Sequence record: MW822008.1
Reading direction: 5' to 3' (one strand)
Source of the DNA: Escherichia phage BF17
DNA: 64,000 nucleotides
The notes beneath the pieces are model-generated. The model was not told where the DNA came from, made no database searches, and was given only the letters and a program-made list of their open reading frames with translations. The position numbers were made by a program, and so were the translations under genes. This document shows, piece after piece, positions 1 through 64,000 of the stretch (its first letter is position 1; every line of letters starts with the position of its first letter).

Positions 1-1
1 A

Positions 2-400
2 GAGCTTGATGTTGGTGAAAGGTATCAGGTGTGGAATAATTCATTTTTTAATAAAGAACATTCTTCGACGGCATTTTATATTTTAGCATTTAATCCCACC
101 AATTGTTACCCAGAGAAGCATGAACGTTATCCGAATGACGACATGTGGTTTGAGTACAAAGAAGATTCTTATATGTCGTCAATTGTAGTTCCTGATGATT
201 TTAATGCACAAGATTTAACAGAAGAGTGGTGGTTCCAGCAGAATTTAGTACATGATGATATTGATTTATTTTTCTATATTGCATTTAAAATGCTTTATCA
301 CAACAATATAGTTAAAGAAAGTGTATCGTTTTCATGTCTATATATTGATGATTTGTACAATGAAATTCAAATAAACATGCCCAGAACGCCTGTATCGTAA
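2..400 (+). CDS. hypothetical protein, FQ-motif paralog family (5' partial, continues upstream of window)
   Basis: Open frame from window edge; motif EEWWFQQNLVHDD. Confidence 0.5.
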   Translation, partial: ELDVGERYQVWNNSFFNKEHSSTAFYILAFNPTNCYPEKHERYPNDDMWFEYKEDSYMSSIVVPDDFNAQDLTEEWWFQQNLVHDDIDLFFYIAFKMLYHNNIVKESVSFSCLYIDDLYNEIQINMPRTPVS

Positions 401-416
401 GATATGGGCTTTTTTC
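379..416 (+). terminator. possible intrinsic terminator
   Basis: gccca/tgggc stem with long loop followed by TTTTTT; weak. Confidence 0.25.
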
Positions 417-425
417 GTTTTGGTA

Positions 426-454
426 TTGACATAGAAGACCAAAGCTGTTATCAT
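426..454 (+). promoter_or_regulatory. sigma70-like early promoter
   Basis: TTGACA (426-431), 17 nt spacer, TGtTATCAT extended -10 (449-454). Confidence 0.4.
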
Positions 455-482
455 GTGTAATCATTTTAAAGGAGAACATATA

Positions 483-995
483 GTGAGTTTCATAATCCCA
501 AGTACATACGAAGATGCATCAAGTGCAGTTCATAAGATTCATTATATTTTTAATTTAATTATTAGATCTGCAAAAATTAAAATGTATGCACCTCTTGTGA
601 CAAATAATCGAAATGAAGAAATTTTTATTAGCACAGACAAAATTATTTTTCCATCTTTCCATGAAGATAGATTGTGGTTCATGCATTTAGCTGCATTACA
701 AAAATATAAAATGTCAATTCGTAATAATTTGGATATACCGTTATATCATCCTGATATTGGAGAGGATGAATATTTTCAGTACAGTACAGTACACCGCCAT
801 GAAGATATCTTTGTTGCTATGCTTATTGCTAAATTGAATACCGTTGATTTGGAGCAGCACAAATATAATAATACATCATGTAAGATCATAATCCCTGCAT
901 TCATAGCTCTTTATGATTATGTGGTGCATAACATAAAAGATGATACATATGCTTTCAATGAAGAGTATTTGGATTTTTTTAAGGAGAACATATGA
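483..995 (+). CDS. hypothetical protein, FQ-motif paralog family
   Basis: Track ORF 453..995; GTG at 483 follows AGGAG RBS and lies downstream of the promoter; motif DEYFQYSTVH. Confidence 0.55.
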   Translation: MSFIIPSTYEDASSAVHKIHYIFNLIIRSAKIKMYAPLVTNNRNEEIFISTDKIIFPSFHEDRLWFMHLAALQKYKMSIRNNLDIPLYHPDIGEDEYFQYSTVHRHEDIFVAMLIAKLNTVDLEQHKYNNTSCKIIIPAFIALYDYVVHNIKDDTYAFNEEYLDFFKENI

Positions 996-1522
996 GCAGT
1001 ACAACAGTACAGAAAGCAATGTCATTCAATGAAATTGGTACATTTAAAGATAAGATCATTGATTGCCTTGAATACATGATTTGTAGTAATATCGAAAGTA
1101 TCGAGATATTTAACAAGACAAATCGCTCTTACCATATGATGTACATTGCAAACAATAATGGTATCATTCCATTTATTTCGGATAGTACAATATGGTACGC
1201 ATGTGATACGAAAAAAACCACAATAGGTTTACATTTATTTGAGACACATTATGATCTAATTATTCCTGAACATTGTATGCAAGAAGAAGAATATTTTCAA
1301 ATGCAATGTATACATTCACCATTAGTGTTGTTTAGTTTATATATTATACCTTATATCACCAAATGTGTTCATGAGAATAAAGCTCCGTGGAATCATGAAT
1401 TTGTATCGTTGAAGTTATTGTATAATGTATTAGTAGAATATTATGATTACAGGCACAATGGTACAATCAGTGATGTATGGGATTTTGAATCGCTAAGGGT
1501 GAAAACATACACAGGTGAATGA
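992..1522 (+). CDS. hypothetical protein, FQ-motif paralog family
   Basis: ATGA overlap with upstream gene; motif EEYFQMQCIH. Confidence 0.6.
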   Translation: MSSTTVQKAMSFNEIGTFKDKIIDCLEYMICSNIESIEIFNKTNRSYHMMYIANNNGIIPFISDSTIWYACDTKKTTIGLHLFETHYDLIIPEHCMQEEEYFQMQCIHSPLVLFSLYIIPYITKCVHENKAPWNHEFVSLKLLYNVLVEYYDYRHNGTISDVWDFESLRVKTYTGE

Positions 1523-2138
1523 TATGACCAGAATTAAAATGTATGATTTGATGCAGTACAGTAAAATTGCCATTCCAGTGCTTAATAAAGTGCTGGATGC
1601 ATTCATTGCCAAATACCCTGAGAATTCAGTGTTATGTATTCCATTTAGCGTTCCAGATAAAGATGATATATTCCAAGTGAATGTCAGTACACGTGGTATT
1701 ACATTACAGCAGAAATACATGGATACGGAATATTATGGAATAAAGTTGGATTCAGTACAGGGTTCAAAATCAGCCTATGATTTTTTTGTTCCTAATAATA
1801 TAGAGTCATGGGAAACAAACATTTCAAAGAAAGATGAAAATGATGTTCCTATTAGTGGTGTGTTCAACAATAAAGTTTTTTATTATTACGAAACCGACAA
1901 ATTCCCTGAAGAGTTATATTACAATTCAGAAATGAATGAAGATGTAGATGCATTCATGTTTCAATTATCTTTAGTACATGATATCATTGATGTTCAAGAG
2001 TTAAGAGCAGAAATCAATTTAGCTAAAGAGTTATCGGACATGCTGCCACCGTTTAGTATGCTTTTTTGTGAAGGTGGTTATTTTTCAAAAGAAGTGTTTG
2101 AACATTTCGTAGATGTTGTAAAAGGGTTGGATATATAG
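1515..2138 (+). CDS. hypothetical protein, FQ-motif paralog family
   Basis: Track ORF; motif AFMFQLSLVHD. Confidence 0.6.
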   Translation: MNDMTRIKMYDLMQYSKIAIPVLNKVLDAFIAKYPENSVLCIPFSVPDKDDIFQVNVSTRGITLQQKYMDTEYYGIKLDSVQGSKSAYDFFVPNNIESWETNISKKDENDVPISGVFNNKVFYYYETDKFPEELYYNSEMNEDVDAFMFQLSLVHDIIDVQELRAEINLAKELSDMLPPFSMLFCEGGYFSKEVFEHFVDVVKGLDI

Positions 2139-2139
2139 T

Positions 2140-2334
2140 ATGCTTACAGTTGATGTTAAACAAAAATACCGTAAGTTTGATTGGTTCACCGATAGTTTCC
2201 AGCTTGAATTATTACATATGAATATCAGTGAAACATTATGTGCAGAAACACAAGATGAATTTGATGATAGAGTGATGAACATAGTAATGCTTTCTTGCTT
2301 TAAACATTTTGGTTATTTTTTCGGACAGAATTGA
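2140..2334 (+). CDS. hypothetical small protein
   Basis: 64 aa ORF abutting neighbours. Confidence 0.4.
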   Translation: MLTVDVKQKYRKFDWFTDSFQLELLHMNISETLCAETQDEFDDRVMNIVMLSCFKHFGYFFGQN

Positions 2335-2342
2335 GGTAAAAA

Positions 2343-2858
2343 ATGCATCAACACAAGCATCATTCATATGATTTTGCAATTAACATTATGAAGTTCATTC
2401 GAGCGTTGGAGGATGGGAAGCTTAGTCATAAGTACAGGAAAGAGGGTAACAATTGGTTCAGAAATGATTCCGAGTTCAGTTGTCATAAAATCGTGTATAG
2501 TAATCAGTACAGTGCCAATTACCTACAAGATGTAGTGATGTGTTTTGAATACGTGTTGCAGTTCAGGGGTTCAATCCAAGATGAGTTGATGGAGAACATG
2601 TACATCCGATACCTTCCAATGCTCAAAGATGAAAATGTATTATTAAATTCAATATACCAACGAGTTCGTGAAATTGAGTGCAGGGATATATTAGATACAG
2701 AAGAATCGTATTTCCAGCAATCCCTGATTTATTCACCTGATTTATTACAGGTACATAATTTGTTTAATACATTACGTCAGAACATCAGTACAGACATATT
2801 TTTGTCATTATCGGATTATGATACATTTGTCAAAGATTTAGAGGAAATAGGATTATGA
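2343..2858 (+). CDS. hypothetical protein, FQ-motif paralog family
   Basis: Motif ESYFQQSLIY. Confidence 0.6.
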   Translation: MHQHKHHSYDFAINIMKFIRALEDGKLSHKYRKEGNNWFRNDSEFSCHKIVYSNQYSANYLQDVVMCFEYVLQFRGSIQDELMENMYIRYLPMLKDENVLLNSIYQRVREIECRDILDTEESYFQQSLIYSPDLLQVHNLFNTLRQNISTDIFLSLSDYDTFVKDLEEIGL

Positions 2859-3196
2859 GTAGATTTTCGGTTTGTGTGGTAAACATAAAAAGTGATGGTA
2901 GTTTAATTGAATTAGATGTATATGATGATGATAATGCATATGGTATTAAAGTACAGGACAATGATGTGCAGTTCAGTTCAAGAACAAATTTTGAAAATCC
3001 AGTCCAAGTTCCTAATTTCATAGAAGATGAAGCAGCACGTTTCCAATACGAAACGGCATATGACAATGTACATATGCATATTATTATGCAACAAAGTTTA
3101 GTTCAATTAGTTCCTTTGTTCAGACAAAATATATATGTACATGAATTGTCGATCAATGACGTTCGCAGTTCCGTATTGTTCGATACAAATATGTAA
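2855..3196 (+). CDS. hypothetical protein, FQ-motif paralog family (divergent)
   Basis: ATGA overlap; motif ARFQYETAYD. Confidence 0.5.
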   Translation: MSRFSVCVVNIKSDGSLIELDVYDDDNAYGIKVQDNDVQFSSRTNFENPVQVPNFIEDEAARFQYETAYDNVHMHIIMQQSLVQLVPLFRQNIYVHELSINDVRSSVLFDTNM

Positions 3197-3206
3197 GGAA
3201 AGTACA

Positions 3207-3749
3207 ATGAGTTTATTAGATACATTAGAAAAAGACAGAAGTGCAATTAAGCGTTTAAAAGAGCAAGTACAAAAGATTGTATACAACGTTGATAAGTTTG
3301 AGGTTCCCGGAAGATTTGGTGATATTTCCCATACGGAGATCAAATCCCTTAAGTCAGATTTGTTGATTAAAAATAAAAATGGGTTGATTTTAGTTTTGAG
3401 TTCAGATATGATGGGGGCAACACATAGTTATAATGCAGTATCGGTGCGTTCAGAGTGTGAAGGTATATATCTATCACAGGGTTTCAATAGCGAGACACAG
3501 GTTTGTTTTTGTGATGCAGTACATGACCCTATGAAGTTCACGAGAAGTGAAGCCCAAGCGTTATTAGAGCTATCAGACGAGAGTTTGTTTCAGTACAGTA
3601 CAATGTATGACAATGATAAGCTTCGTTGTATGTACGCTGTAAAGCATTATACACAGGAGTTCTCTGGATTTGCATACCTTTTAGTTAGAACCAATACCAG
3701 ATATATTGATATGTTAGAAGATTACATCGATAAAGTTGTTAATGTATGA
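3207..3749 (+). CDS. hypothetical protein, FQ-motif paralog family
   Basis: Track ORF 3135..3749; in-frame ATG 3207 after AAGGA; motif ESLFQYSTMYD. Confidence 0.55.
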   Translation: MSLLDTLEKDRSAIKRLKEQVQKIVYNVDKFEVPGRFGDISHTEIKSLKSDLLIKNKNGLILVLSSDMMGATHSYNAVSVRSECEGIYLSQGFNSETQVCFCDAVHDPMKFTRSEAQALLELSDESLFQYSTMYDNDKLRCMYAVKHYTQEFSGFAYLLVRTNTRYIDMLEDYIDKVVNV

Positions 3750-3770
3750 TTTTGTGATGGGATGATGCTA

Positions 3771-3941
3771 ATGAAAGAGTTATTTGAAGATCAGTTCAAT
3801 ACATATGTGGATAATATTCTTTATTCCAGTCGTGCCAGTCAACGAGGAAATCGTGCTTACAATATTGATTACCTATTGGTGGTGCTGAGTTCACAGTACA
3901 CCAATGCGGTACAAAGGGTTTATTATGAAAAGTGCAAGTAA
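3771..3941 (+). CDS. hypothetical small protein (56 aa)
   Basis: Untracked small ORF; overlaps next ORF in another frame. Confidence 0.25.
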   Translation: MKELFEDQFNTYVDNILYSSRASQRGNRAYNIDYLLVVLSSQYTNAVQRVYYEKCK

Positions 3942-4134
3942 TAGTGATATTGCAAAGGAGAAGTTTAAGTGCAGTTTAGATTACGGTTTAAATGATTTTC
4001 TTACATGCACAATGTACAGGGATGATGATTATGAACAATCCGTAATTTCGTTGCACAGATATTTAGAAATAATTTACGCAAGATATCTTAGAAGGTTAGA
4101 GGGAATAGGGGATTGGTATAATGATTACGTTTGA
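3925..4134 (+). CDS. hypothetical protein
   Basis: Track ORF 3904..4134; internal ATG 3925. Confidence 0.35.
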   Translation: MKSASNSDIAKEKFKCSLDYGLNDFLTCTMYRDDDYEQSVISLHRYLEIIYARYLRRLEGIGDWYNDYV

Positions 4135-4357
4135 AGAACCAGAAACAATGAGTCCATATACGATGAAAGGTTTTGAATTCATGATGGATTCGATTTTGAA
4201 GAGTTCGTGTTTAGTACACAATCCTGAGCGTGCAACAGTGAGGGAATATCAGGACAATGCATTACAGCGTGTAATGAATATGTACAGGAATACGAGTCGC
4301 AAGCTTTGTGCGTTGAAAAGGATTGAAGAAATCAAGGTTTCTAGGCTGAATAAATAG
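4121..4357 (+). CDS. hypothetical protein
   Basis: 78 aa track ORF. Confidence 0.45.
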   Translation: MITFEEPETMSPYTMKGFEFMMDSILKSSCLVHNPERATVREYQDNALQRVMNMYRNTSRKLCALKRIEEIKVSRLNK

Positions 4358-4556
4358 AGACGTTTCATTTTGACAGGCCGCTGGAGGGGGTCAAAAAAAT
4401 TTCCGCTGAAAAACATGCTAAGGTATATGTTTAATATAAAGTTTTATATTGTGTTTTTTCAGAGTACAGTTCATGTTTCTTGAAACAAAAAATACCCCGC
4501 CGCCGAACGTTCTCCTTATATTGGAGTTTACCTTATTAATTATAGTAGAGATTAAG

Positions 4557-4934
4557 ATGGAAATAAAATATAATGAATTTTGTGCAAGGACATGGATGTA
4601 CACTGGTGAGTTAGTTACGCACTCTAACTTATACAAGGGTGATTTAAACTACGCTAGGGACAAGATTTTAAAGTACTGGAATGCTGACTTTTATTTGATG
4701 GATTTTAGTACTGGGTTTAGGGGTAAAGCAACCGAGATGTTGGACTATACAGTACTTGATGATTCTGCACTGTTTCAGGCGGCATTAGTATTTGATAAGA
4801 AGTACATCTGTACATTAGAAGAGATGATTGAATTACAGCGTAGAATTAAATGTATTCACAGGGAATGTATAGATATCTGGTGCAGTACTGGTGAAGATGA
4901 TTTTTGTAATCATTTCAATCTAGGGGAAGTGTGA
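4557..4934 (+). CDS. hypothetical protein, FQ-motif paralog family
   Basis: Track ORF 4449..4934; in-frame ATG 4557 after GC-rich leader; motif ALFQAALVFDKKY. Confidence 0.5.
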   Translation: MEIKYNEFCARTWMYTGELVTHSNLYKGDLNYARDKILKYWNADFYLMDFSTGFRGKATEMLDYTVLDDSALFQAALVFDKKYICTLEEMIELQRRIKCIHRECIDIWCSTGEDDFCNHFNLGEV

Positions 4935-5095
4935 TGGAATTTGATTTTTTAATATCAGTACATTCTTTTAAGCACAGTTATCAGTACTTTTGTAATTTAA
5001 ACAAAGGTGATTTGATTATGGATACAGATACAGAGGCTGTATACAGTTCTAATATTCTGTACAAATTCAGTACTAATCTGAAGGAGATTTTATGA
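4934..5095 (+). CDS. truncated paralog (N-terminal duplicate of the 5463 gene), 53 aa
   Basis: Untracked ORF; first ~27 aa near-identical to start of 5463..5819; stop overlaps next ATG. Confidence 0.4.
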   Translation: MEFDFLISVHSFKHSYQYFCNLNKGDLIMDTDTEAVYSSNILYKFSTNLKEIL

Positions 5096-5463
5096 AAAAA
5101 GAAATTAGAATTCAATTCGGTATGAGGAAAAGAGAGGTCATCTGTACACTGAATCATGCGGTCGTGGAAAGCCTTGGTGGTGCATTACAAAAATTCTCCC
5201 ATTTTGTTCTTGTACTATATGAAAATGGGTCTTTTAAAATCTTCACATATGATGATTCAAAAAATTACCGTAATGATTTTGTAAATCTGACAGTACTGTC
5301 AGAAGAGGAATTCTTTCAGGAAAGTACTGTCTGGAATTTACCAGGAGCACCAATTGAATACGTCCGTGCTACACAGGCAGAAATGATCAAAGTAATGCAG
5401 AACTATCCAGAAGATTATATGACTAAGTTTCCTGAATCTATTTATGTAGAGGTTGAGTACTGA
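5092..5463 (+). CDS. hypothetical protein, FQ-motif paralog family
   Basis: Motif EEFFQESTVWN. Confidence 0.6.
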   Translation: MKKEIRIQFGMRKREVICTLNHAVVESLGGALQKFSHFVLVLYENGSFKIFTYDDSKNYRNDFVNLTVLSEEEFFQESTVWNLPGAPIEYVRATQAEMIKVMQNYPEDYMTKFPESIYVEVEY

Positions 5464-5819
5464 TGGAATTTGATTTTTTAATATCAGTACATACTTTCAA
5501 GCACAGTTATCAGTACTTTTGTAATTTAAACAAAGGTGATTTAATGCACAGTGCAAATGAGTATATTCATTACACTCAGGGTAAATTTACATTCATTGAT
5601 TACAGTTCATTACAGTATCCACACCAAGATATGCCGGACTATACATTAATGGATACCGCAGAACTATTCCAAGAATCATTAGTATTTGATAAGAAGTACT
5701 TGTGTACATTTGAAGAAGTTATTGCAATACAAAATGAAATGAAAGAGTATGCTGCTTTGCATAAACCCAATGCAAGTATTAATCAAGAATACAAATTCAA
5801 TTTAGGAATTCAAGAATGA
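5463..5819 (+). CDS. hypothetical protein, FQ-motif paralog family
   Basis: Motif ELFQESLVFDKKY. Confidence 0.65.
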   Translation: MEFDFLISVHTFKHSYQYFCNLNKGDLMHSANEYIHYTQGKFTFIDYSSLQYPHQDMPDYTLMDTAELFQESLVFDKKYLCTFEEVIAIQNEMKEYAALHKPNASINQEYKFNLGIQE

Positions 5820-6175
5820 CATATGATTATTCTATGTACTATTATAAGTTACCTAAAGGATGGGACTTGTGCTGTAATCTTATTAAGGGCGACTCGGAAC
5901 ATGAGTTGAGTTTATATATGCATTACAAAGATTCTTGTTTTAAATTTATTCATGTATCACATGACGACTATGACTATGAATCTGAGAGTCTTATAGATTA
6001 TACAGTACTGGACGATGGTGAACTATTTCAGGCTGCATTAGTGTTTGATAAGAATAAGTACTCCTGTACATTTGAAGAAATGGTTTCTTTGCAAAATGAA
6101 ATGAAGAGATTTGAAAAAGAAAACGTATTTAATCCATCCCCATCAAGAACGAATAATTATTATTTCAATATATGA
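5816..6175 (+). CDS. hypothetical protein, FQ-motif paralog family
   Basis: Motif ELFQAALVFDKNKY. Confidence 0.65.
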   Translation: MTYDYSMYYYKLPKGWDLCCNLIKGDSEHELSLYMHYKDSCFKFIHVSHDDYDYESESLIDYTVLDDGELFQAALVFDKNKYSCTFEEMVSLQNEMKRFEKENVFNPSPSRTNNYYFNI

Positions 6176-6184
6176 GATTATAAA

Positions 6185-18483: not shown

Positions 18484-18908
18484 CAAGAGATGATTGTTTG
18501 TACATATGGGATATAATTGAAACTACACTTTCAAATCCAGAAAATTATAAAACAAAAAAAAGACAACGACACAAAATATGGATAGATTTGTTCGTTGAGG
18601 GCATACACGCAGTGACTATTTGGGATTCACCGAGGGCATCAGCATCTACTCTATTGGACAATGAATGCATTGATTGCATTAATTCCACTTTTCATCTCTA
18701 CGGTACTACATTTTTCGGTACATTTCTGGATATTGAAAGTAAAGATGATATTGATTCACTTGCGTTACAATACCAAGTACTGTATAATACTAAATTAATT
18801 TACGATTTAGTACTAGCTTCTTATGTGTATAAATTAATGATGAAATATAATCATATTTCTGTTTCAGTTTATACTAAGGATATTCTTTCATTAAGAGACA
18901 AAACATGA
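18480..18908 (+). CDS. hypothetical protein, FQ-motif paralog family (degenerate)
   Basis: Track ORF; weak motif LQYQVLYNTK. Confidence 0.45.
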   Translation: MTRDDCLYIWDIIETTLSNPENYKTKKRQRHKIWIDLFVEGIHAVTIWDSPRASASTLLDNECIDCINSTFHLYGTTFFGTFLDIESKDDIDSLALQYQVLYNTKLIYDLVLASYVYKLMMKYNHISVSVYTKDILSLRDKT

Positions 18909-28838: not shown

Positions 28839-29360
28839 ATGTCGAAGAAGGATGCTTCGAAAAAACATTCAGTACATTTTAGTACTGGAAAAGATAACTG
28901 GACAACTCCAAAGGATTTCTTTGAAGATTTGGATGAACTCTGGGAATTTACACTAGATGCAGCATGTGTCAAAGAAACTGCATTGTGTGATAATTTTTTC
29001 ACTCCAGAAGATGATTCACTGTCACAGGATTGGGGAAATAATATAGTTTGGTTGAATCCACCATATAGTGACTTGAAAACTTGGTTATCTAAAGCAGTAG
29101 ATGCATATAATAACGGGGCAACTGTAGTTATTCTTGTACCCTCAAGAACCGATACAATTGCTTTTCAGGATTATGCTGCTAAAATATGTGATTGTATTTG
29201 TTTTATTAAGGGAAGATTGAGATTTGGTATACCAGAAGAACCCGATAAGAAAACAGATTCAGCACCATTTCCTTCGTGTCTGATAGTACTGGATAAGTAC
29301 TTAACCACTGCTAAAATCAATTATCTTAAATCTCTTGGGTTGGTGATGAAGAATTTATGA
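28839..29360 (+). CDS. DNA N6-adenine methyltransferase (phage Dam family)
   Basis: NPPY catalytic motif (WLNPPYSD); size and layout typical of phage N6A MTases. Confidence 0.8.
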   Translation: MSKKDASKKHSVHFSTGKDNWTTPKDFFEDLDELWEFTLDAACVKETALCDNFFTPEDDSLSQDWGNNIVWLNPPYSDLKTWLSKAVDAYNNGATVVILVPSRTDTIAFQDYAAKICDCICFIKGRLRFGIPEEPDKKTDSAPFPSCLIVLDKYLTTAKINYLKSLGLVMKNL

Positions 29361-45878: not shown

Positions 45879-47297
45879 ATGAGCATTTTAGCAATTCTTG
45901 AAAGCATTAAAAATACTAGCAGTACTCTGGGCAAAAAGGCTATTCTTGAACAAAATAAAGATAATGTAACTTTACAAAAAGTACTGAAATATACTCTAGA
46001 CCCTTCTATCGTTAGTGGCTATAAGAAGCTCCCTGCCGCTGATGACGTATATCAACATATGACGTTAGATGAAGCAATTGATAAGCTAGAATGCATTTAC
46101 AAGCGTGATGTGACAGGAAATGCGGGGCGTGATTTCATTGCTTCAGTACTGGGTTCTGTATCTGAAGATGATCAGGAAGTTCTACGTAGAATGCTCACTA
46201 AGAACCTTGATTGTGGTATTCAGGAGAAGAACTGCAATGATGTGTTTGGTAAAGGATTCATCAAAGACGAACCATATATGCGTTGTTCTTTGATTGACAA
46301 AAAGACTGCAAAGAACATCAACTTCAAAGATTATGGTTACGCTATATCAGAAGTGAAAATGGATGGTCAGTACTTAAACCACGTTGTCATTAATGGTTCA
46401 TTAACTTCTACATCCCGTAATGGTAAACTATACGACTTCCTGGGTTGTCGTGATGGTGAGATGGCAGGTCTTGCTCACATCATCCAAAGTAAAGATGAAC
46501 GTTTTAGTAGTGGTGTAGTCTTTATGGGGGAAGGTGTAGTACTGGACAATGATGGAGAAACCATTCTCCCACGCACTACTGGCAACGGTATAATTCAGAA
46601 AGCTGGTAAAGATAGCATCAGTCAGAATGAAGCAATGCGTACTGTATTCGTTCTATGGGATGTTGTTCCATATGATGCATTTTGTGAAGGTGTATGGGAT
46701 GTAAAACGTAAAGAACGTCGCGAGATCTTAGTAGATGCAATTAACGAACTCAATAGTGATTTTGTTCGTATGGTTGGATTCCGTAAAGTTCTAAACATCA
46801 AAGAAGCATTTGAGTACAATAGTGAACTAATGAACGAAGGTGAAGAGGGTTCAGTACTGAAATGTGAAGATGGTATCTGGAAATCTCATACTTCACCTAA
46901 GCAGTTGAAAATGAAATTGAAAATGCAACTGGACTTACGTATTGTTGGTTTCAATGAAGGTGAAGGTAAACGTAAAGGAAGCCTAGGTTCTTTACAACTG
47001 GAAAGTGCTTGTGGTTCATTGAAAGTTAATGTGGGTACTGGTATCAAAGAGAAAGATGCTGAATGGACATTTAAAACCATTTGGGAAAGAATGCAAGAAC
47101 TTATTGGTAAAGTGGTTACAGTTGAGTGTAATGACATTGTATTCGACAAGCGTACTGGTGAGCCATCACTGTTCTTACCAGTGTTTATTGAATTTAGATT
47201 TGACAAAAACACTTGTGATGATTATACTCGTATCTTAGAAATTCGTGAGAGTGCTGTTGAAGTGTTCTCAAACAGTATTATTGACGCATTAGGTTAA
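45879..47297 (+). CDS. ATP-dependent DNA ligase (T4 gp30-like)
   Basis: Aligns with T4 DNA ligase: KKAILEQNKDN N-terminus, adenylation Lys in KMDG, C-terminal LFLPVFIEFRFDK. Confidence 0.95.
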   Translation: MSILAILESIKNTSSTLGKKAILEQNKDNVTLQKVLKYTLDPSIVSGYKKLPAADDVYQHMTLDEAIDKLECIYKRDVTGNAGRDFIASVLGSVSEDDQEVLRRMLTKNLDCGIQEKNCNDVFGKGFIKDEPYMRCSLIDKKTAKNINFKDYGYAISEVKMDGQYLNHVVINGSLTSTSRNGKLYDFLGCRDGEMAGLAHIIQSKDERFSSGVVFMGEGVVLDNDGETILPRTTGNGIIQKAGKDSISQNEAMRTVFVLWDVVPYDAFCEGVWDVKRKERREILVDAINELNSDFVRMVGFRKVLNIKEAFEYNSELMNEGEEGSVLKCEDGIWKSHTSPKQLKMKLKMQLDLRIVGFNEGEGKRKGSLGSLQLESACGSLKVNVGTGIKEKDAEWTFKTIWERMQELIGKVVTVECNDIVFDKRTGEPSLFLPVFIEFRFDKNTCDDYTRILEIRESAVEVFSNSIIDALG

Positions 47298-56701: not shown

Positions 56702-58141
56702 ATGAAAAAATATACAATTGACACAAACGTACTACTATCTGACCCGAATGCATCTATTGCTTTTGATGGTGCTGCAATCATTCTACCATTTACAGTACTG
56801 GAAGAATTGGATTCAATTAAGAGTCGTAATGTAGATGTTTCACGCGATGCTCGTGTTGCTATTCGTAACATTGAAGCAATTATTGCAGATGCATCACATG
56901 ATGAGATTAGTAGTACTGGTGTTAATATTGCTGATGTTCATACCAATATGAATCCTGATAGCAAATTGTTTGTTATTACAAACGAAGAAGCTGAAGCACT
57001 AATTCGTACTAAAGGTTCAGAAGAGAAAGTTCAAACCCTTCTCAAAAGCACAGTACCTGATGATAAAATCATTCTGGTAGCTTTAGCAACAGAATCAGTA
57101 CTGGTAACTCGTGATATCAACATGCGTATCAAAGCACTAAGTTATGGTGTCGAGGTACAAGATTATCGCCATGATATTGTTATTGGTGATAGTGATTTGA
57201 TTCACATTGGTCAACACCATTTGGAAATTAATTTTTGGGAAGTATATAGCAACTTATCCAATACTAATATTCAATCCGAACAAGTTGGTCGTCGTTTGTA
57301 TCATTACATTTCTAAAAGCTTGATTGAACATTTGCTTCCACAAAATCTATGCATCGGTGATTATCTATATGATGATGCAGACGTATTATTTGTGTACGAA
57401 GGTCAATCAGCAATTGAGGAAGATGATGGAACACTAACACCAGAAGATATTTTGGTATTCCAAGATATTGGACAATCAGTAGCTTTACGTGCTAAAGTAT
57501 GGGATATTAAAGCAAAGAATATCCAACAAGCACTCGCCATCAACAGTATTCTCGATCCTGATGTACATCTAACAGTACTGCTAGGTTCTGCTGGTACTGG
57601 TAAAACACTAATTACGATTGCTACTGCATTAGAATTAGTACTGGAAAAACGTAAATACGACCGAATCATCTTCTCTAAAACTCAAGACTCACAGTTTGAA
57701 GATATTGGTTTCTTGCCAGGTTCAGAAGCAGAAAAAGTGATTCCATTCTGTGGAGCCGCAATTGACGCGTTAGAGTTTCTTCATAAAGATGATGCTAACC
57801 CACAAGGTAGTATTGAAGAGATTATGAAACGTAATGTTATTCAATTTAAAGCACTAAACTTTGTACGTGGACGTTCATTCACCAACACTATTCTAGTAGT
57901 TGATGAATTCCAAAACATTACACCTGCACAAGCCAAAACAATCTTGACACGAGCAGGATTAAACTGTAAAGTAGTAATTATGGGTAACTTGAGTCAGATT
58001 GACAGTAAGTTTATTAGTCCTGTTAACAGTGGTTTGACATATGTAACTGAGAAGTTTAAAGATTGGGCAGGTTGTCGTGTCATCGAACTTGAAGGTGTTG
58101 TTCGCTCACCACTAGCTGAATTTGCTGAAGAAAATATGTAA
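56702..58141 (+). CDS. phoH: PIN-domain PhoH-like ATPase (PhoH2 type)
   Basis: N-terminal PIN-like region (DTNVLL, LEELD); Walker A GSAGTGKT; Walker B VVDEFQN. Confidence 0.88.
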   Translation: MKKYTIDTNVLLSDPNASIAFDGAAIILPFTVLEELDSIKSRNVDVSRDARVAIRNIEAIIADASHDEISSTGVNIADVHTNMNPDSKLFVITNEEAEALIRTKGSEEKVQTLLKSTVPDDKIILVALATESVLVTRDINMRIKALSYGVEVQDYRHDIVIGDSDLIHIGQHHLEINFWEVYSNLSNTNIQSEQVGRRLYHYISKSLIEHLLPQNLCIGDYLYDDADVLFVYEGQSAIEEDDGTLTPEDILVFQDIGQSVALRAKVWDIKAKNIQQALAINSILDPDVHLTVLLGSAGTGKTLITIATALELVLEKRKYDRIIFSKTQDSQFEDIGFLPGSEAEKVIPFCGAAIDALEFLHKDDANPQGSIEEIMKRNVIQFKALNFVRGRSFTNTILVVDEFQNITPAQAKTILTRAGLNCKVVIMGNLSQIDSKFISPVNSGLTYVTEKFKDWAGCRVIELEGVVRSPLAEFAEENM

Positions 58142-58144
58142 TAT

Positions 58145-58178: not shown

Positions 58179-58209
58179 GTTGTTATCATACTACAGAAGG
58201 AGATATAAA

Positions 58210-58398: not shown

Positions 58399-58502
58399 TT
58401 CATTTGAAGACATATTGTGGAGTTCTTAATAAATACTTTTATAAGAATAATAATACTTTTTATTAAATTAAAAAGAACTCCATGTGTTATTTCAGTTTTT
58501 CG

Positions 58503-58529
58503 TCCCTGTCTTTTGGCAGGGATTTTTTA
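58503..58529 (+). terminator. intrinsic terminator
   Basis: ccctg...caggg hairpin followed by ATTTTTT. Confidence 0.5.
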
Positions 58530-58624
58530 TATCTATATCTTGACAAAAGGAACAAATCATGAGAACATGTATTAAAGGAAGAATGACTTTCCATTAGGTT
58601 ATTTTAACTTAAAGGAGATTTCAT

Positions 58625-59182
58625 ATGTTTTTTGACCAAACATTTACGTTGTATCACGATTCTGGTAAAGTTGAGATTATTGATAATCTGTTAGAGTACA
58701 TTGCGGAACATGACGGTATAGACCGTTTCCACAGTAAGATGAAATTCGATTTAGCTGAATTCAACAAAAAGAATCGTGAAACATTTTGGAAGAACCGTTT
58801 CTATTACGAAATGTATCCAGAAAAGTTCGTAGGTTATTATCTTTGTACTGAAAAAGGATTACTTGTATCTCCTGATTTACTTATGGGTGAATACATGATA
58901 CTCTATAATGAGTACTGGGAACATAAACGTAAAGCTCGTGATAAGGAATGGCGACATAAGCGTTCGTATATGTACAAACATAACCACTCCCGATACAAGC
59001 GTCCTAAGACTCAGCAAGAGCGTCGTATGGCTTGTGCAGTACTGAAGGATGAGGGGGAACCTGAAATACGTGGAAGACGTAAGATGCGTTCATTACCATC
59101 GTATTGGGACGATATCAGAACAAGACACAGTACTGGCTGGAAATACAGTACTAAACGTAAACATCAATACAAAGGGAGCTAA
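58625..59182 (+). CDS. basic protein, Lys/Arg-rich C-terminal half
   Basis: AAAGGAG RBS; 185 aa. Confidence 0.55.
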   Translation: MFFDQTFTLYHDSGKVEIIDNLLEYIAEHDGIDRFHSKMKFDLAEFNKKNRETFWKNRFYYEMYPEKFVGYYLCTEKGLLVSPDLLMGEYMILYNEYWEHKRKARDKEWRHKRSYMYKHNHSRYKRPKTQQERRMACAVLKDEGEPEIRGRRKMRSLPSYWDDIRTRHSTGWKYSTKRKHQYKGS

Positions 59183-59209
59183 TGCTCCCTAATTTTATAG
59201 GTGAACTTT

Positions 59210-59539
59210 ATGAACAAAATTGACGTTACTGTAGTGATTGGTTATATTGAAATTGAACCGTGTGGCATTGATACCTTTATTGACACTCTTAATAAGTATC
59301 GTGCTGAATATAACGGTCCCATTAGTCTTTCACCCGACGGTGGTTACGGCGGTTTTCATGGATACAATGTAATTTGGACCAGAGAAGAAACTGACGAAGA
59401 ATATAATACACGAATTGAAGCTGAATCTAAAAAATGTGAAGAAATTGAACGTCAAGAAATGAAACACTTAATGAACAAGAAATCATTAAGTACCGAAGAG
59501 AAATCTAAACTGCTAAAATATATCAAGGATTACATGTAA
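59210..59539 (+). CDS. hypothetical protein
   Basis: Track ORF 59201..59539; ATG 59210. Confidence 0.5.
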   Translation: MNKIDVTVVIGYIEIEPCGIDTFIDTLNKYRAEYNGPISLSPDGGYGGFHGYNVIWTREETDEEYNTRIEAESKKCEEIERQEMKHLMNKKSLSTEEKSKLLKYIKDYM

Positions 59540-60189
59540 TGAAAAATGTAACTCAAGAAAAGATTCTGTACCTTGCAAAGTACAATGGTGGTTTCAATAT
59601 CATTAGCCGTGAGTACAGTGGTAATTTGGCTAAGTTGATTGACAGTTTGTTAGAATTTGATTTCATTAAATGGGAAACTAATGAACTTTGGTACGAATAT
59701 GCTGGTCAGAAATGGGAAAGTGATTATGATAATGCAATACATTCATACACTATCACCAAAGCAGGTGAAGTTCGATTAGCCATTATGCGTTGTGCATATA
59801 CTTACAAAAATCATAAAGGTGAAGAAAAACATATTCGCAGAAATGAAGAGCTATTACTTCTCATGGAAGCAGCAAAAGTTACAATGCATGATTTGTTCCA
59901 CCACCCACGTTGGTATGAAAATCTAACAAAAGCAGAGTACAAAGCTTTACGTTACATTGATGAACAAAACAACACCCCAGTTGAAGTTGATGATGTTAGT
60001 GATGATGAACTAAGCCTCAAAAATGTATTTGAAAGTACCAGTACTGAAAGTATTACAGACATTTCTGTACAGATGGCCCTAAAAGCAATGGAACTTTTCA
60101 AGACACAATATGAAGGACACAGTGCTGAAGAAGTAGAGCGTGAGTTCATCACACGCGTACAGATTGCATTGTTCCAATCGAAAAAGTAG
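59539..60189 (+). CDS. hypothetical protein
   Basis: 216 aa; ATGA overlap. Confidence 0.55.
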   Translation: MKNVTQEKILYLAKYNGGFNIISREYSGNLAKLIDSLLEFDFIKWETNELWYEYAGQKWESDYDNAIHSYTITKAGEVRLAIMRCAYTYKNHKGEEKHIRRNEELLLLMEAAKVTMHDLFHHPRWYENLTKAEYKALRYIDEQNNTPVEVDDVSDDELSLKNVFESTSTESITDISVQMALKAMELFKTQYEGHSAEEVEREFITRVQIALFQSKK

Positions 60190-60287
60190 GATGATATGAA
60201 ATATGAACATCCGTGATGGGTTATCATATAAAGAAGCAGGTAAAGATGGTGTCAAAGGTGAAGCTGTAGATCTTTGCATTTGTGCAC

Positions 60288-60316
60288 TTGACATGTTCGC
60301 TTTGTAATGCGATAAT
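60288..60316 (+). promoter_or_regulatory. sigma70-like promoter
   Basis: TTGACA (60288-60293), 17 nt spacer, GATAAT (60311-60316). Confidence 0.45.
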
Positions 60317-60397
60317 ATGAGTTCAGAAGAGATGGAACGTGAGTTCCTTACTTACATGAATGTTAAACTAGCCAAATGGCGTAAATCAATTCAATAG
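60317..60397 (+). pseudogene. remnant duplicate of the 3' end of the 59539..60189 gene
   Basis: 26-codon frame SSEEMEREFLTYMNVKLAKWRKSIQ parallels upstream C-terminus SAEEVEREFITRVQIALFQSKK; starts at promoter -10 so unlikely translated. Confidence 0.35.
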
Positions 60398-60406
60398 GTA
60401 TTTTAA

Positions 60407-61378
60407 ATGAAAACTAAAATTATTTCTGAACAAAAAATTGGCAATACTACAGTACTGAATCTTGAAGTTCAAGGTCTTAGTAATGTTCGTTCTCTTACGG
60501 TTTGTACTCAGAGAGATGATTTGACTGATTTCTATAGCTCAGAATACATGTCAGAAGAACCTTGGGATATGGGATGGTTGGACGGTAGTAGTTATATCAG
60601 TTCACGTTATAGTTTTGGTTCTCATGAAAATATTGAACAATTAAAAAATGAGTATATTAAACTCAGTGATACTATTGAAATGAAAGAAGAAGATTGTGTA
60701 GAACTTTTCATTTTTGAATTCGATGCCGGAAATGGTAATTCATTACTAGTAAGTAATATTGAAGAACATTTAATGTATCATGAAATTGAAGATGTAGATT
60801 TTGAAAGTATTAAAAATGTTGTTCATATGGTTGGTGGTAGTATTACTGATGATTCAGATATCGGTCATAATATTTCACTGTGCTTAATTTCTCATCCAAA
60901 AACTCGTGGTTTTAAAGTTCCACAAGATGAAACTTACGTGTCTGAAACTGCTGATGAAGGAATTTATCCTTGGAATGATTATGTAGAATACTATGGTCAT
61001 TTCTGTTCTGATACAAAAGAACTGAAAAAAGGCGAACAATATTTTGATATGTTCCGTGCTGCACAGCGTTTAGTACTGAATAATACTGAACTATTTCCTG
61101 ATCGCGGCGAAGAAAATATGATTGATATTATCTTCAAGAACTATGATTATGTACAGAACATTCCTGATAATGTACATTTGGAATATGTTCACAGTTCTTC
61201 AAACAAATTCTATAATATTGAATTGAATGCTCCAGTGTGTGAAGTAATTATTGAGTACGGTGCTATTGGTAAAACCAGTACTACTGATGGTGAAGAATTC
61301 GAAACTATTGAAGAAGCACGTAAGTTCTTCGAGAAGAAAGTAATTTCCAAAATTAAAAGTGGTTATAGCCCAAAATGA
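60407..61378 (+). CDS. hypothetical protein (323 aa)
   Basis: Track ORF. Confidence 0.6.
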   Translation: MKTKIISEQKIGNTTVLNLEVQGLSNVRSLTVCTQRDDLTDFYSSEYMSEEPWDMGWLDGSSYISSRYSFGSHENIEQLKNEYIKLSDTIEMKEEDCVELFIFEFDAGNGNSLLVSNIEEHLMYHEIEDVDFESIKNVVHMVGGSITDDSDIGHNISLCLISHPKTRGFKVPQDETYVSETADEGIYPWNDYVEYYGHFCSDTKELKKGEQYFDMFRAAQRLVLNNTELFPDRGEENMIDIIFKNYDYVQNIPDNVHLEYVHSSSNKFYNIELNAPVCEVIIEYGAIGKTSTTDGEEFETIEEARKFFEKKVISKIKSGYSPK

Positions 61379-61755
61379 AAATCACACGCTTTGGTAAAAC
61401 CTTTGAACTAAACATTGTTTCTGTTTATAAAAAAGGAAAATCAGGAAAGTTAAGCACTGATAATATTAGATTTGTTATTAGTGATTATTATGATATGTTT
61501 AATCAGGCATTTGAAGAAAATAAATTTGGTTTGATTTTATGTAAACCACAAAAACCGGAATTAGGTATTTTGGATTTAAGAACTGATAAGTCTGATTTTA
61601 TTGGTAATCTTGATATTATTGAATTTAAAGTTGATATATCAAAAGAACATTTTAGAGTTAAAAACTATAATTATTACAAAGTTGATATTAATTCTATCGA
61701 AGTACAAAACGTACTTGATGAACTTATCAGTAATAATTCGTGTTTTACTAAATGA
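61375..61755 (+). CDS. hypothetical protein
   Basis: 126 aa; ATGA overlap. Confidence 0.55.
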   Translation: MKITRFGKTFELNIVSVYKKGKSGKLSTDNIRFVISDYYDMFNQAFEENKFGLILCKPQKPELGILDLRTDKSDFIGNLDIIEFKVDISKEHFRVKNYNYYKVDINSIEVQNVLDELISNNSCFTK

Positions 61756-61767
61756 GAAAAAAATATC

Positions 61768-62001
61768 ATGAAAAATATATTCATTACATTAACAATATTT
61801 GTATCCATTATTCTCTGTGGTTGTGCTCCTAAAGTTGATGAGATGGATGCTGAAATCATCCGTCAAGGTTTAACAAAACTAAATCACCAAGGAACACTAT
61901 ACGCATGTCATACTATGCGTCATGGGCAAGATCTTAATCTCATGTGCAGGAAGATTGTGAATCGCAAACGTCTTAATACTGTTCCGAAGGATGCACAATG
62001 A
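61768..62001 (+). CDS. small putative lipoprotein
   Basis: Signal peptide MKNIFITLTIFVSIILCGC with lipobox-like LCGC. Confidence 0.5.
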   Translation: MKNIFITLTIFVSIILCGCAPKVDEMDAEIIRQGLTKLNHQGTLYACHTMRHGQDLNLMCRKIVNRKRLNTVPKDAQ

Positions 62002-62168
62002 AAGAAGTAATTGACTACAAATGTAAAAATTGTGGCAAAGATAAGGGTAAGCATTCAGTACAAGGGATGGCTTGCCCGAATCCAGGTCGTGGTAATTTCA
62101 GCGGGTTCAGTACTGAAAAGTCTTACGAACCGGATCATACCAAACCTGTAATGGGTTATAAATTATGA
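61998..62168 (+). CDS. small Cys-containing protein (56 aa)
   Basis: Untracked ORF; ATGA overlaps at both ends; CKNCGK motif. Confidence 0.4.
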   Translation: MKEVIDYKCKNCGKDKGKHSVQGMACPNPGRGNFSGFSTEKSYEPDHTKPVMGYKL

Positions 62169-62524
62169 GTGATTATGTAGCATTTCTTCATCGCTTTGGA
62201 GAAGCTAAAGAAAAACATATTATCCGTATGCCATTATATGGTGAAAAAGACTGGTACAAAAGTACTATAAGTGTAGGTGCATTTCGTGACCGTGAAGCTG
62301 GATTCTTTCTGGGTAAGCAACATGAACGAGAGGTACTTTGCTCACTGTGGCGTTTGGATGAATGGGATAGTGAGAACGTAAGAACTGCTGAATCAATGCT
62401 GGCTATTGTTGGTATTGCGAACTATCAGCACCCATATGACCTATTACCTACATTTGAACATGCTTCTTTGTTTGATTTTTACAAAGCAGTAGGGTATGAT
62501 TATAAAAAGAAACGTTACATTTAA
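62165..62524 (+). CDS. hypothetical protein
   Basis: 119 aa track ORF. Confidence 0.5.
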   Translation: MSDYVAFLHRFGEAKEKHIIRMPLYGEKDWYKSTISVGAFRDREAGFFLGKQHEREVLCSLWRLDEWDSENVRTAESMLAIVGIANYQHPYDLLPTFEHASLFDFYKAVGYDYKKKRYI

Positions 62525-62526
62525 TA

Positions 62527-62557
62527 TCAGTACTACCACAGTGGGCAGTACTTTTTA
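62527..62557 (+). terminator. possible intrinsic terminator
   Basis: Two AGTACT hexamers around accacagtgggc, then CTTTTT; weak. Confidence 0.25.
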
Positions 62558-62570
62558 ATTGGAGATTACT

Positions 62571-63185
62571 ATGACTACATCTGAAAAGTACTGGTGGATT
62601 TTGGCTCATCCTAAATTCATAAACAAAGATATGGTTCCAGCTAGGATTGATATAGAACCTCATGATGTGTGTCCAATGACAAATCGAATTGAAGATTTCA
62701 AAGCATTGAATACAAAGACTCAATTTTGGGTAGAATTTCTTTCACCAATGTATATTGAGCAAGACGACGAATGGGTACAAGCACATGATTATCAATTGGA
62801 TTGTGGTGGTGATACGTATGAAGAGGCGATTGATAAATTATACAAAAATGTGCTAAACACATATGGTGATTACACCCAACAAGAAGCAGATAACACATTT
62901 AATAAGATCCATGCATTCAAATCTACTCCATCAATTTTTAATCCTACTAAAACTGTTTGGGAGGAACGACACAGTTGGAGTTCATGTGTAATCGATGAAG
63001 AAACCAAAGAAAAAATCATCGATGATATAAAAAATTTAAAAAATACGATAGAAGCCTTGCGTGAATTCATAATGTCTTGTACAATAGAACAACAGAAAGA
63101 GGCAAAGATACATTTGGAGAGTGAAGAATGTAAACTTTGGGTTCTAGAGAAATCTATTGAAAAGGGTATAGACTTAGACTTATGA
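62571..63185 (+). CDS. hypothetical protein
   Basis: Track ORF 62559..63185; ATG 62571 six nt after GGAG. Confidence 0.55.
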   Translation: MTTSEKYWWILAHPKFINKDMVPARIDIEPHDVCPMTNRIEDFKALNTKTQFWVEFLSPMYIEQDDEWVQAHDYQLDCGGDTYEEAIDKLYKNVLNTYGDYTQQEADNTFNKIHAFKSTPSIFNPTKTVWEERHSWSSCVIDEETKEKIIDDIKNLKNTIEALREFIMSCTIEQQKEAKIHLESEECKLWVLEKSIEKGIDLDL

Positions 63186-63550
63186 ATAGTAAATTGGAGA
63201 AACTAATCGAAGAATTACGCCAGATGCCACCTATTGAACAAGTAGGAAATTACAAACGGTATCGTGTTATTGCTCGTGCACTTGATAAAAAAGGTAGAGT
63301 ACTGGCAACTCGCACAAATTCTTATACACAGACTCACCCAGTACAGAAGGGTTTCGCCATTCGTGCTGGGCGACCGCAAGGTGAGTTTCTTCATGCTGAA
63401 ATTTCATGTTTACTGGCTGCTCGTGCTGATGTTCATACTTTACTGATTGCACGGATAAGTAAAGATGGAATTCCTGTTCCGGCTAAACCATGTGAAATTT
63501 GCTCATTAGCAATAAAAGAATATGGGGTGAAAGAGATTATCCACACATGA
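63182..63550 (+). CDS. cytidine/deoxycytidylate deaminase-fold protein (small)
   Basis: Zinc motifs HAE (FLHAEISCL) and PCxxC (PCEICS); 122 aa. Confidence 0.65.
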   Translation: MNSKLEKLIEELRQMPPIEQVGNYKRYRVIARALDKKGRVLATRTNSYTQTHPVQKGFAIRAGRPQGEFLHAEISCLLAARADVHTLLIARISKDGIPVPAKPCEICSLAIKEYGVKEIIHT

Positions 63551-63768
63551 AAATTGAAAGATATGCTAAGCATACTGTTGGGTGTGTAAATGATATATTC
63601 TATTATTATATTTTTGCACCTGAACTACGTTTTCAAATCACAACATACAATGATGGCAGATTTAAAGATACAAACTTCCTCATAACCGACTTAGCAAAGT
63701 ATGCGAATACAGAACATTTTAATCATTTAGTATTTGTGTACTGTATACCAAACCCAAATAAAAAGTAG
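63547..63768 (+). CDS. hypothetical protein
   Basis: Track ORF 63499..63768; ATG 63547 overlaps upstream stop. Confidence 0.45.
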   Translation: MKIERYAKHTVGCVNDIFYYYIFAPELRFQITTYNDGRFKDTNFLITDLAKYANTEHFNHLVFVYCIPNPNKK

Positions 63769-63778
63769 GAGATTAAAA

Positions 63779-64000
63779 ATGGCTAAAACAATTTCTTTAA
63801 AAAATGAAAATGTAGGACAACGCAAAGATGGTTTCTTTGGTTTTTCTTGGACAACATTATTCTTTGGACCGTTCCCTGCATTGTTTCGTGGTGACTTTAT
63901 TACGTTCATCGGTGCATTCGTAATTTACTTCATCCTCAACGCAGTGTCATTTTGGATTGTGGGTACAATTGCAATGGTTGTATGGGCATTTCTTTATAAT
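63779..64000 (+). CDS. membrane protein (3' partial, runs off window)
   Basis: Untracked open frame to window end; AGGAG RBS 7 nt upstream; hydrophobic FITFIGAFVIYFILNAVSFWIVGTIAMVVWAFL. Confidence 0.5.
   Translation, partial: MAKTISLKNENVGQRKDGFFGFSWTTLFFGPFPALFRGDFITFIGAFVIYFILNAVSFWIVGTIAMVVWAFLYN

Follow-up and report, generated by a model that had tools for sequence, protein, structure and literature searches.

Hyper-abundant palindromes are documented mainly for HIP1 (GCGATCGC), a word of cyanobacterial genomes (PMC5861425, PMC4390886) whose function has been debated for three decades. The present analysis concerns the palindrome AGTACT in a culturable 350-kb coliphage, Escherichia phage BF17, as found in a stretch of 64,000 nucleotides of sequence record MW822008.1 (hereafter the window), together with a block of genes at the start of this window from which the trinucleotide ACT is missing. 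HIP1 is the closest analogue, although the AGTACT case is not a member of it. The excess of HIP1 is 15- to 300-fold, whereas that of AGTACT is 9-fold for the hexamer and 44-fold for the octamer. Both words occur within genes in all frames as well as between genes, are conserved above background, are spaced non-randomly, are specific to lineages and carry flanking extensions. HIP1 is a GC-rich word of cellular chromosomes with cognate methyltransferases and a periodicity at 10-90 kb, whereas AGTACT has an AT-rich core in a viral genome, has no methyltransferase assigned to it and is evenly spaced at a scale of a few hundred base pairs. Unlike HIP1, it is also found at fixed positions in sigma70-type early promoters. 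The phage case offers more experimental handles than HIP1 does, including conserved sites, defined early promoters and a contrast of about 45-fold with the host.

Several other systems share part of this behavior. The stoperators of L5-type mycobacteriophages are asymmetric, oriented, intergenic sites, numbering about 30 per genome, that function in lysogenic silencing. The likeness to these operator/stoperator systems lies in a single specificity present at the early promoter and at many sites throughout the genome but, unlike stoperators, AGTACT is palindromic, occurs about 900 times per genome, is mostly intragenic and belongs to a virulent phage. Chi, USS/DUS and KOPS are asymmetric words with strand or orientation bias that mark 'own' DNA for machinery that processes it. 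AGTACT resembles Chi, DUS and KOPS in being a short word in genome-wide excess with turnover of individual sites, and differs in being palindromic and embedded in promoters. AGTACT is also the recognition sequence of ScaI and Eco255I, and GTAC that of RsaI; among the annotated phage nucleases and the two phage methyltransferases, a nuclease or methyltransferase for AGTACT is not assignable. Within the same host group, the binding site of the nucleoid-occlusion factor SlmA (GTGAGTACTCAC, PMC3020112) is a 12-bp palindrome with an identical AGTACT core. SlmA strongly requires G1, T2 and a purine at position 3 (PMC3020112), and these flanks are not enriched and are partly depleted in the phage, which has no full match in 348 kb. 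Site numbers differ as well, with about 900 per 350 kb in the phage versus about 50 per 4.6 Mb for SlmA. No description of the AGTACT motif or of the ACT-free block was found in the papers searched on phages 121Q, PBECO4, RaK2, CBB, phAPEC6 and Sharanji.

Abundance and distribution of AGTACT

The window belongs to a Rak2-like jumbo coliphage (Asteriusvirus), has a G+C content of 32.9% and carries nearly all of its genes on the plus strand. Between 20 and 30 kb it is 99.5% identical to SHEFM2K and 99.2% identical to 121Q, its DNA ligase matches that of vB_EcoM_G17 (G17) at 100% identity, and its first position corresponds to position ~164,706 of 121Q. Genome-wide counts were made on the complete 121Q genome (348 kb) with dinucleotide expectations, and gene-aware null models were run on 128 plus-strand open reading frames (ORFs) of the window. 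Relatives were fetched using the DNA ligase, phages PA5oct, XacN1 and RaK2 were compared through 25-kb samples, and a 50-kb sample of E. coli K-12 served as the host reference.

By exact count, AGTACT occurs 193 times in the window (3.0 per kb), compared with 16.9 ± 4.1 occurrences and a maximum of 28 in dinucleotide-preserving shuffles. GTAC occurs 508 times, CAGTACTG 48 times and AGTACTGG 37 times. The Markov expectations for AGTACT at orders 0 to 4 are 21, 17, 36, 72 and 166, and by z the hexamer ranks first among all 4096 whether the model is of order 1 or of order 3. The order-4 expectation approaches the observed count because the pentamers AGTAC (318) and GTACT (265) already hold the signal. 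Within the 128 ORFs AGTACT occurs 175 times, compared with 45.4 ± 6.2 in a protein-preserving shuffle of synonymous codons and 23.5 ± 4.4 in a permutation of codon order; for CAGTACTG, with 45 copies, the corresponding values are 3.6 and 1.0. The synonymous shuffle thus gives about twice as many copies as the permutation, which implies that the proteins themselves have shifted toward compatible dipeptides. An earlier note on this DNA had proposed the over-representation by eye, and it is borne out against the shuffle, Markov, synonymous and codon-permutation nulls alike, with observed-to-expected ratios of 2.7 (third-order Markov), 3.9 (synonymous) and 7.4 (codon permutation), none of them near 1. 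The word is thus over- rather than under-represented, the opposite of restriction-site avoidance, as the note had also said.

The sites are distributed over all three reading frames, with 74 read as Ser-Thr, 42 as x-Tyr-x and 59 as x-Val-Leu, and about 17 are intergenic, in proportion to the non-coding fraction of the window. Gene starts or ends are not favored. The frames, the intergenic sites and the excess over codon-aware nulls agree with the earlier claim that no single protein motif is involved, and the synonymous and codon-permutation nulls rule out a codon or dipeptide artefact. Exact per-gene counts show the by-eye figures of 2-4 per kb observed and 0.3-0.4 per kb expected to have been accurate. 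The DNA ligase gene holds six sites (4.2 per kb) and rnlA three (2.6 per kb), while an array of small paralogous genes has 3.6 per kb overall (5.2 per kb between 4.7 and 12 kb) and the remainder 3.05 per kb. Part of the local excess in the paralogue array is due to the conserved Ser-Thr codons of a shared peptide, and a bump in AGTACT is seen at gene deciles 7-8 within it. The features concerned are as follows.

4672 to 63303, no strand assigned: array of 193 AGTACT sites, the first at 4672 and the last at 63298, with a mean spacing of about 305 bp
4557 to 27600, plus strand: array of small paralogous genes with the shared peptide E-x-[YF]-F-Q-x-S-[TL]-[VI]
45879 to 47297, plus strand: DNA ligase, a core gene with six AGTACT sites

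The enrichment extends to the whole genome. In 121Q there are 903 copies of AGTACT versus 100 expected, 194 of CAGTACTG versus 4.4 and 2411 of GTAC versus 1127; the top over-represented octamers are all derivatives of the motif, and AGTACT density is similar within blocks of minus-strand genes. The trait is common to relatives in IMG/VR whose ligase is only 63-68% identical, and Klebsiella phage RaK2 has 58 copies versus 5.4 expected. The excess is absent from the 25-kb samples of two more distant phages, a comparison in which host and phylogeny are confounded: Pseudomonas phage PA5oct, whose G+C is the same, has one copy versus 7.8 expected, and Xanthomonas phage XacN1 has none versus 4.9. 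The E. coli K-12 sample contains three copies (0.06 per kb), so that the phage DNA is about 45 times richer.

Flanks, conservation and promoter placement of the sites

The preference for AGTACT extends symmetrically beyond the hexamer. Of the sites in the window, 45% have C directly before the core and 50% have G directly after it. Across all of 121Q (1806 half-sites), the preference is for T(42%)-T(36%)-C(46%)-AGT, with G directly 5' of the core depleted to 8%. The preference is graded and reaches ±6, describing a 12-bp palindrome, TTCAGTACTGAA (TTC-AGTACT-GAA), that is shared by Asteriusvirus and RaK2. The symmetry of the flanks indicates recognition at the level of double-stranded DNA. Across genera the core hexamer is invariant and the preference at position -1 is C or A depending on the lineage, with TGA-AGTACT-TCA in more distant lineages in place of TTC-AGTACT-GAA. 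The combination of an invariant core with lineage-specific flanks is compatible with a co-evolving phage reader. One-step neighbors of AGTACT are not depleted and most are enriched 1.2- to 2.7-fold; AATACT/AGTATT stand at an observed-to-expected ratio of 1.2, showing no marked excess of C-to-T neighbors. This lack of depletion among single-mutation neighbors speaks against a drive resembling very-short-patch repair.

Individual sites are retained more often than control words. When the window is compared with 121Q (96.6% identity) without the ACT-free block, 175 of 188 AGTACT sites (93.1%) are kept, compared with 83.8% of hexamers of the same composition and 84.7% of one-off neighbors (binomial P = 1e-4). 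Between 121Q and phage Ecwhy_1 (84% identity), 35 of 44 sites (80%) in the array downstream of the block are kept versus 45% of all hexamers, and between the window and relatives at ~60% nucleotide identity the values are 15-29% versus 8-11%. The window and 121Q differ by equal numbers of gains and losses, 13 of each, and at ~60% identity both lineages hold the same AGTACT density while individual sites turn over. By our own reckoning, an enrichment of about 10-fold at mutation-selection balance would lower the rate of loss to about one fourth of the neutral rate, and the retention predicted from the comparison of 121Q with Ecwhy_1 (0.45^0.24 = 0.83) lies close to the observed 0.80. Spacing is also more even than random. 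Between 12 and 64 kb of the window, its coefficient of variation (CV) is 0.79 versus 0.99 ± 0.08 for a Poisson process (P ~0.001), and gaps reach at most 1274 bp, compared with ~1870 bp under the null. In 20-kb blocks of 121Q the CV is 0.835 versus 0.966, with 12 of 14 blocks below the null and a combined z of -3.5. Taken together, even spacing and site conservation point to functional selection rather than neutral drive.

The densest AGTACT region of the genome lies outside the window. The ends of the G17 record map to positions 155,638 and 135,458 of 121Q, which places a direct terminal repeat of about 20.2 kb at 135.46-155.64 kb of 121Q, in agreement with the 20,668-bp terminal repeat of Sharanji (PMC11895373). 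This repeat contains 6.7 sites per kb versus 2.3 per kb elsewhere, and its intergenic part 12.7 per kb. Very small ORFs fill it, preceded by sigma70 promoters that are close to consensus and have an extended -10 element. AGTACT occupies either of two set positions in 22 of the 25 strict sigma70-type promoters predicted on its transcribed strand. One class carries the site over the -35 element, as aaaAGTAC running directly into TTGCAA, followed by N17 and GTATAAT, and the other carries it at the -10 element, as TTGACA, N10-11 and AGTAC running directly into TGTATAAT, where it supplies the TG of the extended -10. Some promoters hold both, 20-22 bp apart, which accounts for a small excess of site distances at ~20 bp, and this two-position placement is classic operator geometry. 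As the promoter copies lie upstream of their own transcription start, they too indicate recognition of double-stranded DNA and not of that transcript. One promoter-like element of the second class, identified by pattern match only, lies within the window, where the AGTACT at 18776 provides the TG of the extended -10.

18760 to 18788, plus strand: class 2 promoter-like element, TTGCGT with a 17-nt spacer ending in AGTACTG, then TATAAT

In phage CBB, one terminator in a supplementary listing is made up of the motif in two copies. A 4-kb run of ORFs of ~70 aa, immediately inside the terminal repeat at 155,502-159,569 of 121Q (L020 1001-6000), has no AGTACT, has GTAC at background with TGTACT as its commonest context, and is conserved in Ecwhy_1. 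The 121Q gene gp167 (L016 39267-40229) encodes a sigma70-family factor with regions 2, 3 and 4, which the phage has besides a gp55-like late sigma factor.

The ACT-free block

The earlier note had placed the motif throughout the window, which does not hold for its first 4.7 kb. Positions 1-4671 contain no AGTACT at a normal density of GTAC, and most of this interval coincides with the following feature.

1 to 4601, plus strand: 3' part of a 7.5-kb ACT-free block that starts upstream of the window

On the coding strand of positions 1-4601 there are no ACT trinucleotides (~80 expected) versus 118 AGT, and the threonine codon ACT is used in 0% of cases versus 43% elsewhere at unchanged base composition. 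In 121Q the block spans 161,803-169,314, comprises about 20 genes (gp345-364) and lacks ACT in 7,511 bp versus 144 expected, making it by far the most extreme word desert of the genome, and it has identical boundaries in Ecwhy_1, which is ~19% diverged in the aligned island. Every NACT is avoided, ACA and ACG are enriched, and AGT is untouched, indicating a constraint on a single strand. The 39 copies of GTAC in 1-4671 are followed by A in 37 cases, by G in two and by T in none. AGTACA occurs 25 times in this interval, 23 of them in called genes (frames 8/7/8), at about four times the synonymous null, and is enriched ~11-fold inside the ACT-free block; its reverse complement TGTACT is absent from 1-4671. 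As AGTACT and TGTACT both contain ACT and AGTACA is the nearest variant without it, the strict orientation of AGTACA follows. The block thus serves as a natural internal control in which the word is forbidden and a variant matching five of six positions appears instead, and enrichment of such a variant is what additive binding energy, rather than all-or-none recognition by an enzyme, would lead one to expect. AGTACA is, however, enriched yet not conserved above background, which is explained cleanly by no model.

The simplest reading of the block is that it encodes ACU-free mRNAs, which suggests escape from an ACU-specific endoribonuclease; an explanation through primase sites is possible but less natural. 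An assembly or base-calling artefact was rejected, as the independently sequenced 121Q and Ecwhy_1 show the same pattern, and recent horizontal import was rejected on the grounds of the same occurrence in both phages and the unchanged base composition. The normal frequency of AGT led us to reject avoidance of a double-stranded half-site. Scanning the two ends of the block for promoters and terminators gave no clear signal. The block resembles transcripts that resist mRNA interferases, whether ACA-less mRNAs with MazF or transcripts facing U^ACU/U^ACG cutters such as MazF-SEA (PMC10864209), in the absence of a sense-strand 3-nt word from all frames, as would be expected if a sequence-specific single-strand RNase were being evaded. 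Unlike the mRNA-interferase cases, the implied word is plain ACU, no matching enzyme was found, and the unit is a natural phage one of ~20 genes. The described MazF/PemK enzymes cut ACA, U^ACA, or U^ACG/U^ACU (PMC10864209). MazF (ACA) and the U^ACG/U^ACU cutters were rejected as the cause, since ACA and ACG are enriched in the block. A further enzyme, ChpBK, cuts ACY. Independently of AGTACT, the 7.5-kb block provides a lead to a sequence-specific RNase and to a 'cleavage-proof operon' strategy.

Candidate explanations and neighboring features

The AGTACT sites are tentatively read as bound sequence-specifically by a symmetric, dimeric protein, an interpretation to which we assign somewhat less than an even chance. 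It is favored because of the symmetric flanks, the conservation and even spacing of the sites, their placement in promoters and the persistence of AGTACA, and of the two functions suggested in the earlier note, a binding site for a phage protein fits better than a modification target. The putative reader would most likely be phage-encoded; the binding itself, the phage origin of the protein and the effect of binding are what we infer from these sequence patterns. Selection at the level of sites would keep about one AGTACT per 300-400 bp across the 350-kb genome, and the resulting array could act as a mark of phage DNA at ~45 times the density of the host sample. At early promoters the reader would be an operator-binding regulator, most simply a repressor for early shut-off, and the intragenic array might allow it to coat, organize, insulate or protect phage DNA. 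The array may also explain early-gene regulation, filamentation and the discrimination of own from host DNA in jumbo phages that form no nucleus. Separately, avoidance of ACT across a block the size of a transcription unit, most likely serving to free its mRNAs of ACU, forces AGTACT to AGTACA.

Several points weigh against a dimeric DNA-binding reader. Only ~40-60 of the 903 sites are associated with promoters, the rest being intragenic, and the role proposed for this majority is conjecture. A phmmer search of the 121Q ORFs gave no SlmA- or TetR-like match to a hand-entered SlmA query, and Pfam assigns no GTAC-specific family to the annotated nucleases, the 'DNA-binding' protein or the phage sigma factor. 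Neighboring sites show no helical (10.5-bp) phasing. Inside the block, AGTACA is kept only at background, 13 of 31 copies (42%) versus 40%, a comparison of small numbers. The confounding of host and phylogeny in PA5oct and XacN1 also counts here, and a methyltransferase target is a possible alternative given that two phage methyltransferases are encoded.

The last of these alternatives holds that AGTACT is a modification target similar to HIP1, with AGTACT or GTAC methylated by one of the two phage enzymes, namely the one assigned to PF05869 or gp91, a small DNMT3-like 5-methylcytosine (m5C) enzyme. The sites might be kept for a function such as strand marking, protection or methylation-sensitive early promoters, which would tell incoming from newly replicated DNA, or they might be made and maintained by a methylation-linked repair system, as has been proposed for HIP1. 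This view draws on the precedent of HIP1, which is associated with cognate methyltransferases (PMC4390886) and maintained by selection (PMC5861425), on the strictly invariant core with drifting flanks, as for a discrete enzyme recognition site, and on the overlap of sites with promoter elements where methylation could act. We nevertheless consider it doubtful, as nothing ties either methyltransferase to AGTACT. Outside the clade, PF05869 homologues reach no more than 43% identity, leaving a co-occurrence test with no informative homologue, and gp91 is a generic small m5C enzyme resembling those of short specificity. The graded 12-bp flanks and the 11-fold enrichment of AGTACA would be unusual for a Type II-like enzyme, and a marked C-to-T neighbor excess is lacking. 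Neutral molecular drive, in which biased repair, recombination or replication turns near-cognate words into AGTACT with no function attached, appears improbable. Such a model has been proposed for HIP1 (PMC4390886) and accords with the heavy positional turnover at depth under constant density, with gains that equal losses (13 each) among close relatives and with an AGTACA that is enriched and not conserved above background in the ACT-free block. It does not predict spacing more even than random or stereotyped positions in early promoters; furthermore, the one-step neighbors are enriched rather than depleted and the conservation excess fits mutation-selection balance.

Two further explanations differ from the dimeric phage reader in the molecule that is taken to act on the word. 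In the case of SlmA, hundreds of sites on each of the many phage genome copies spread through the cell would load the host nucleoid-occlusion factor, block FtsZ rings and cause filamentation. Phages of Enterobacteriaceae carry the motif, and the sampled relatives from Pseudomonas and Xanthomonas lack it. The Pseudomonas and Xanthomonas hosts are not known to have SlmA. The phage core, with its halves AGT and ACT, agrees with GTGAGTACTCAC at A4, G5 and the pyrimidine at 6 of each half-site, the consensus and the requirements at each position are published (PMC3020112; PMC3116907), and Sharanji causes filamentation with its DNA dispersed in the cell and has no known division inhibitor (PMC11895373). 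The flanks make this hijack very unlikely, since the phage half-sites have G1 in only 16% of cases (T in 42%), T2 in 36% and a purine at position 3 in 32% (C 46%, G 8%), the GTR flank occurs 20 times versus ~51 expected, and GTRAGYRCTYAC is absent from the 348 kb of 121Q. Selection on the flanks would, if anything, seem to have disfavored SlmA binding. As about 50 sites are bound in E. coli versus ~280 AGTACT cores by extrapolation from the 50-kb sample, the core alone appears insufficient. It is scarcely credible that the word acts in RNA, as an AGUACU motif of mRNAs, or that it simply follows from codon or dipeptide usage. Nearly all genes of the window lie on one strand, so that the word is present in mRNAs, and the conserved Ser-Thr of the paralogue array adds some copies; however, the flanks of the palindrome are symmetric, sites occur in all frames and between genes, codon-aware nulls are exceeded 4- to 7-fold, promoter copies lie upstream of transcription starts and density is similar in minus-strand gene blocks.

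The Dam-family enzyme named in these explanations is encoded in the window, together with a protein that might bear on the ACT-free block.

28839 to 29360, plus strand: Dam-family DNA N6-adenine methyltransferase (PF05869), with three AGTACT sites inside
56702 to 58141, plus strand: PIN_4 and PhoH (PhoH2-type) protein, not linked to AGTACT

The Dam-family methyltransferase reported at 28839 in the earlier note is a real gene, whereas its proposed tie to AGTACT is unsupported. The fusion of PIN_4 and PhoH domains at 56702-58141 is possibly an RNA helicase/RNase, and mycobacterial PhoH2 reportedly functions as an RNase. A role for the phage protein as the sequence-selective RNase behind the ACU-free block is speculative.

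Other words are also strongly biased in these genomes. GCGC is totally absent, with none in the window (20-45 expected), none in the 348 kb of 121Q versus 178 and none in the RaK2 sample versus 8, at a frequency of 6.8 per kb in the E. coli sample. GATC (88 versus ~215), GGCC and CCGG are also under-represented, and the deficit in these four words could arise from restriction avoidance or from a phage nuclease aimed at host DNA. A more comprehensive scenario, unlikely in its entirety, would combine the two biases with the ACT-free block. Rak2-like phages, which have neither a nucleus nor reported bulk modification, would mark their own DNA by the AGTACT array and the exclusion of GCGC, a phage-encoded dimeric reader would switch early promoters and, during take-over, distinguish, organize or shield phage DNA as against that of the host, and the ACU-free operon of ~20 genes would alone survive an ACU-specific RNase active in infection.

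Among hexamers with at least 8 occurrences expected in the window, several with GTC/GAC or GATC inside are all but missing; CAGATC, CAGTCT and GAGGAG are absent and GATGTC, GACATC, ACAGTC and GACTGT occur once each. The Chi octamer GCTGGTGG is present in 121Q 18 times on the plus strand, versus 8.6 under a maximal-order Markov model, and 11 times on the minus strand, and TGCTGG, GCTGGT and GGTGGT are among the enriched hexamers of several relatives. The paralogue family spans positions ~140-27600 of the window, and the ACT-free genes belong to the same family. In an alignment of seven array members (453-6172) only the F-Q pair is invariant, with the consensus E-x-F-Q-x-S-L-V-x-D. A 323-aa protein encoded at 60407-61378 has a C-terminal WGR domain, which is unusual for a phage. 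With respect to deposited genomes the window is a mosaic, as illustrated by its matches to SHEFM2K (99.5% at 20-30 kb) and G17 (100% in the ligase). Positions 1-4671 have their best match in CRJP21, at only 97.5%, and identity to 121Q varies from 93% to 98% between segments.

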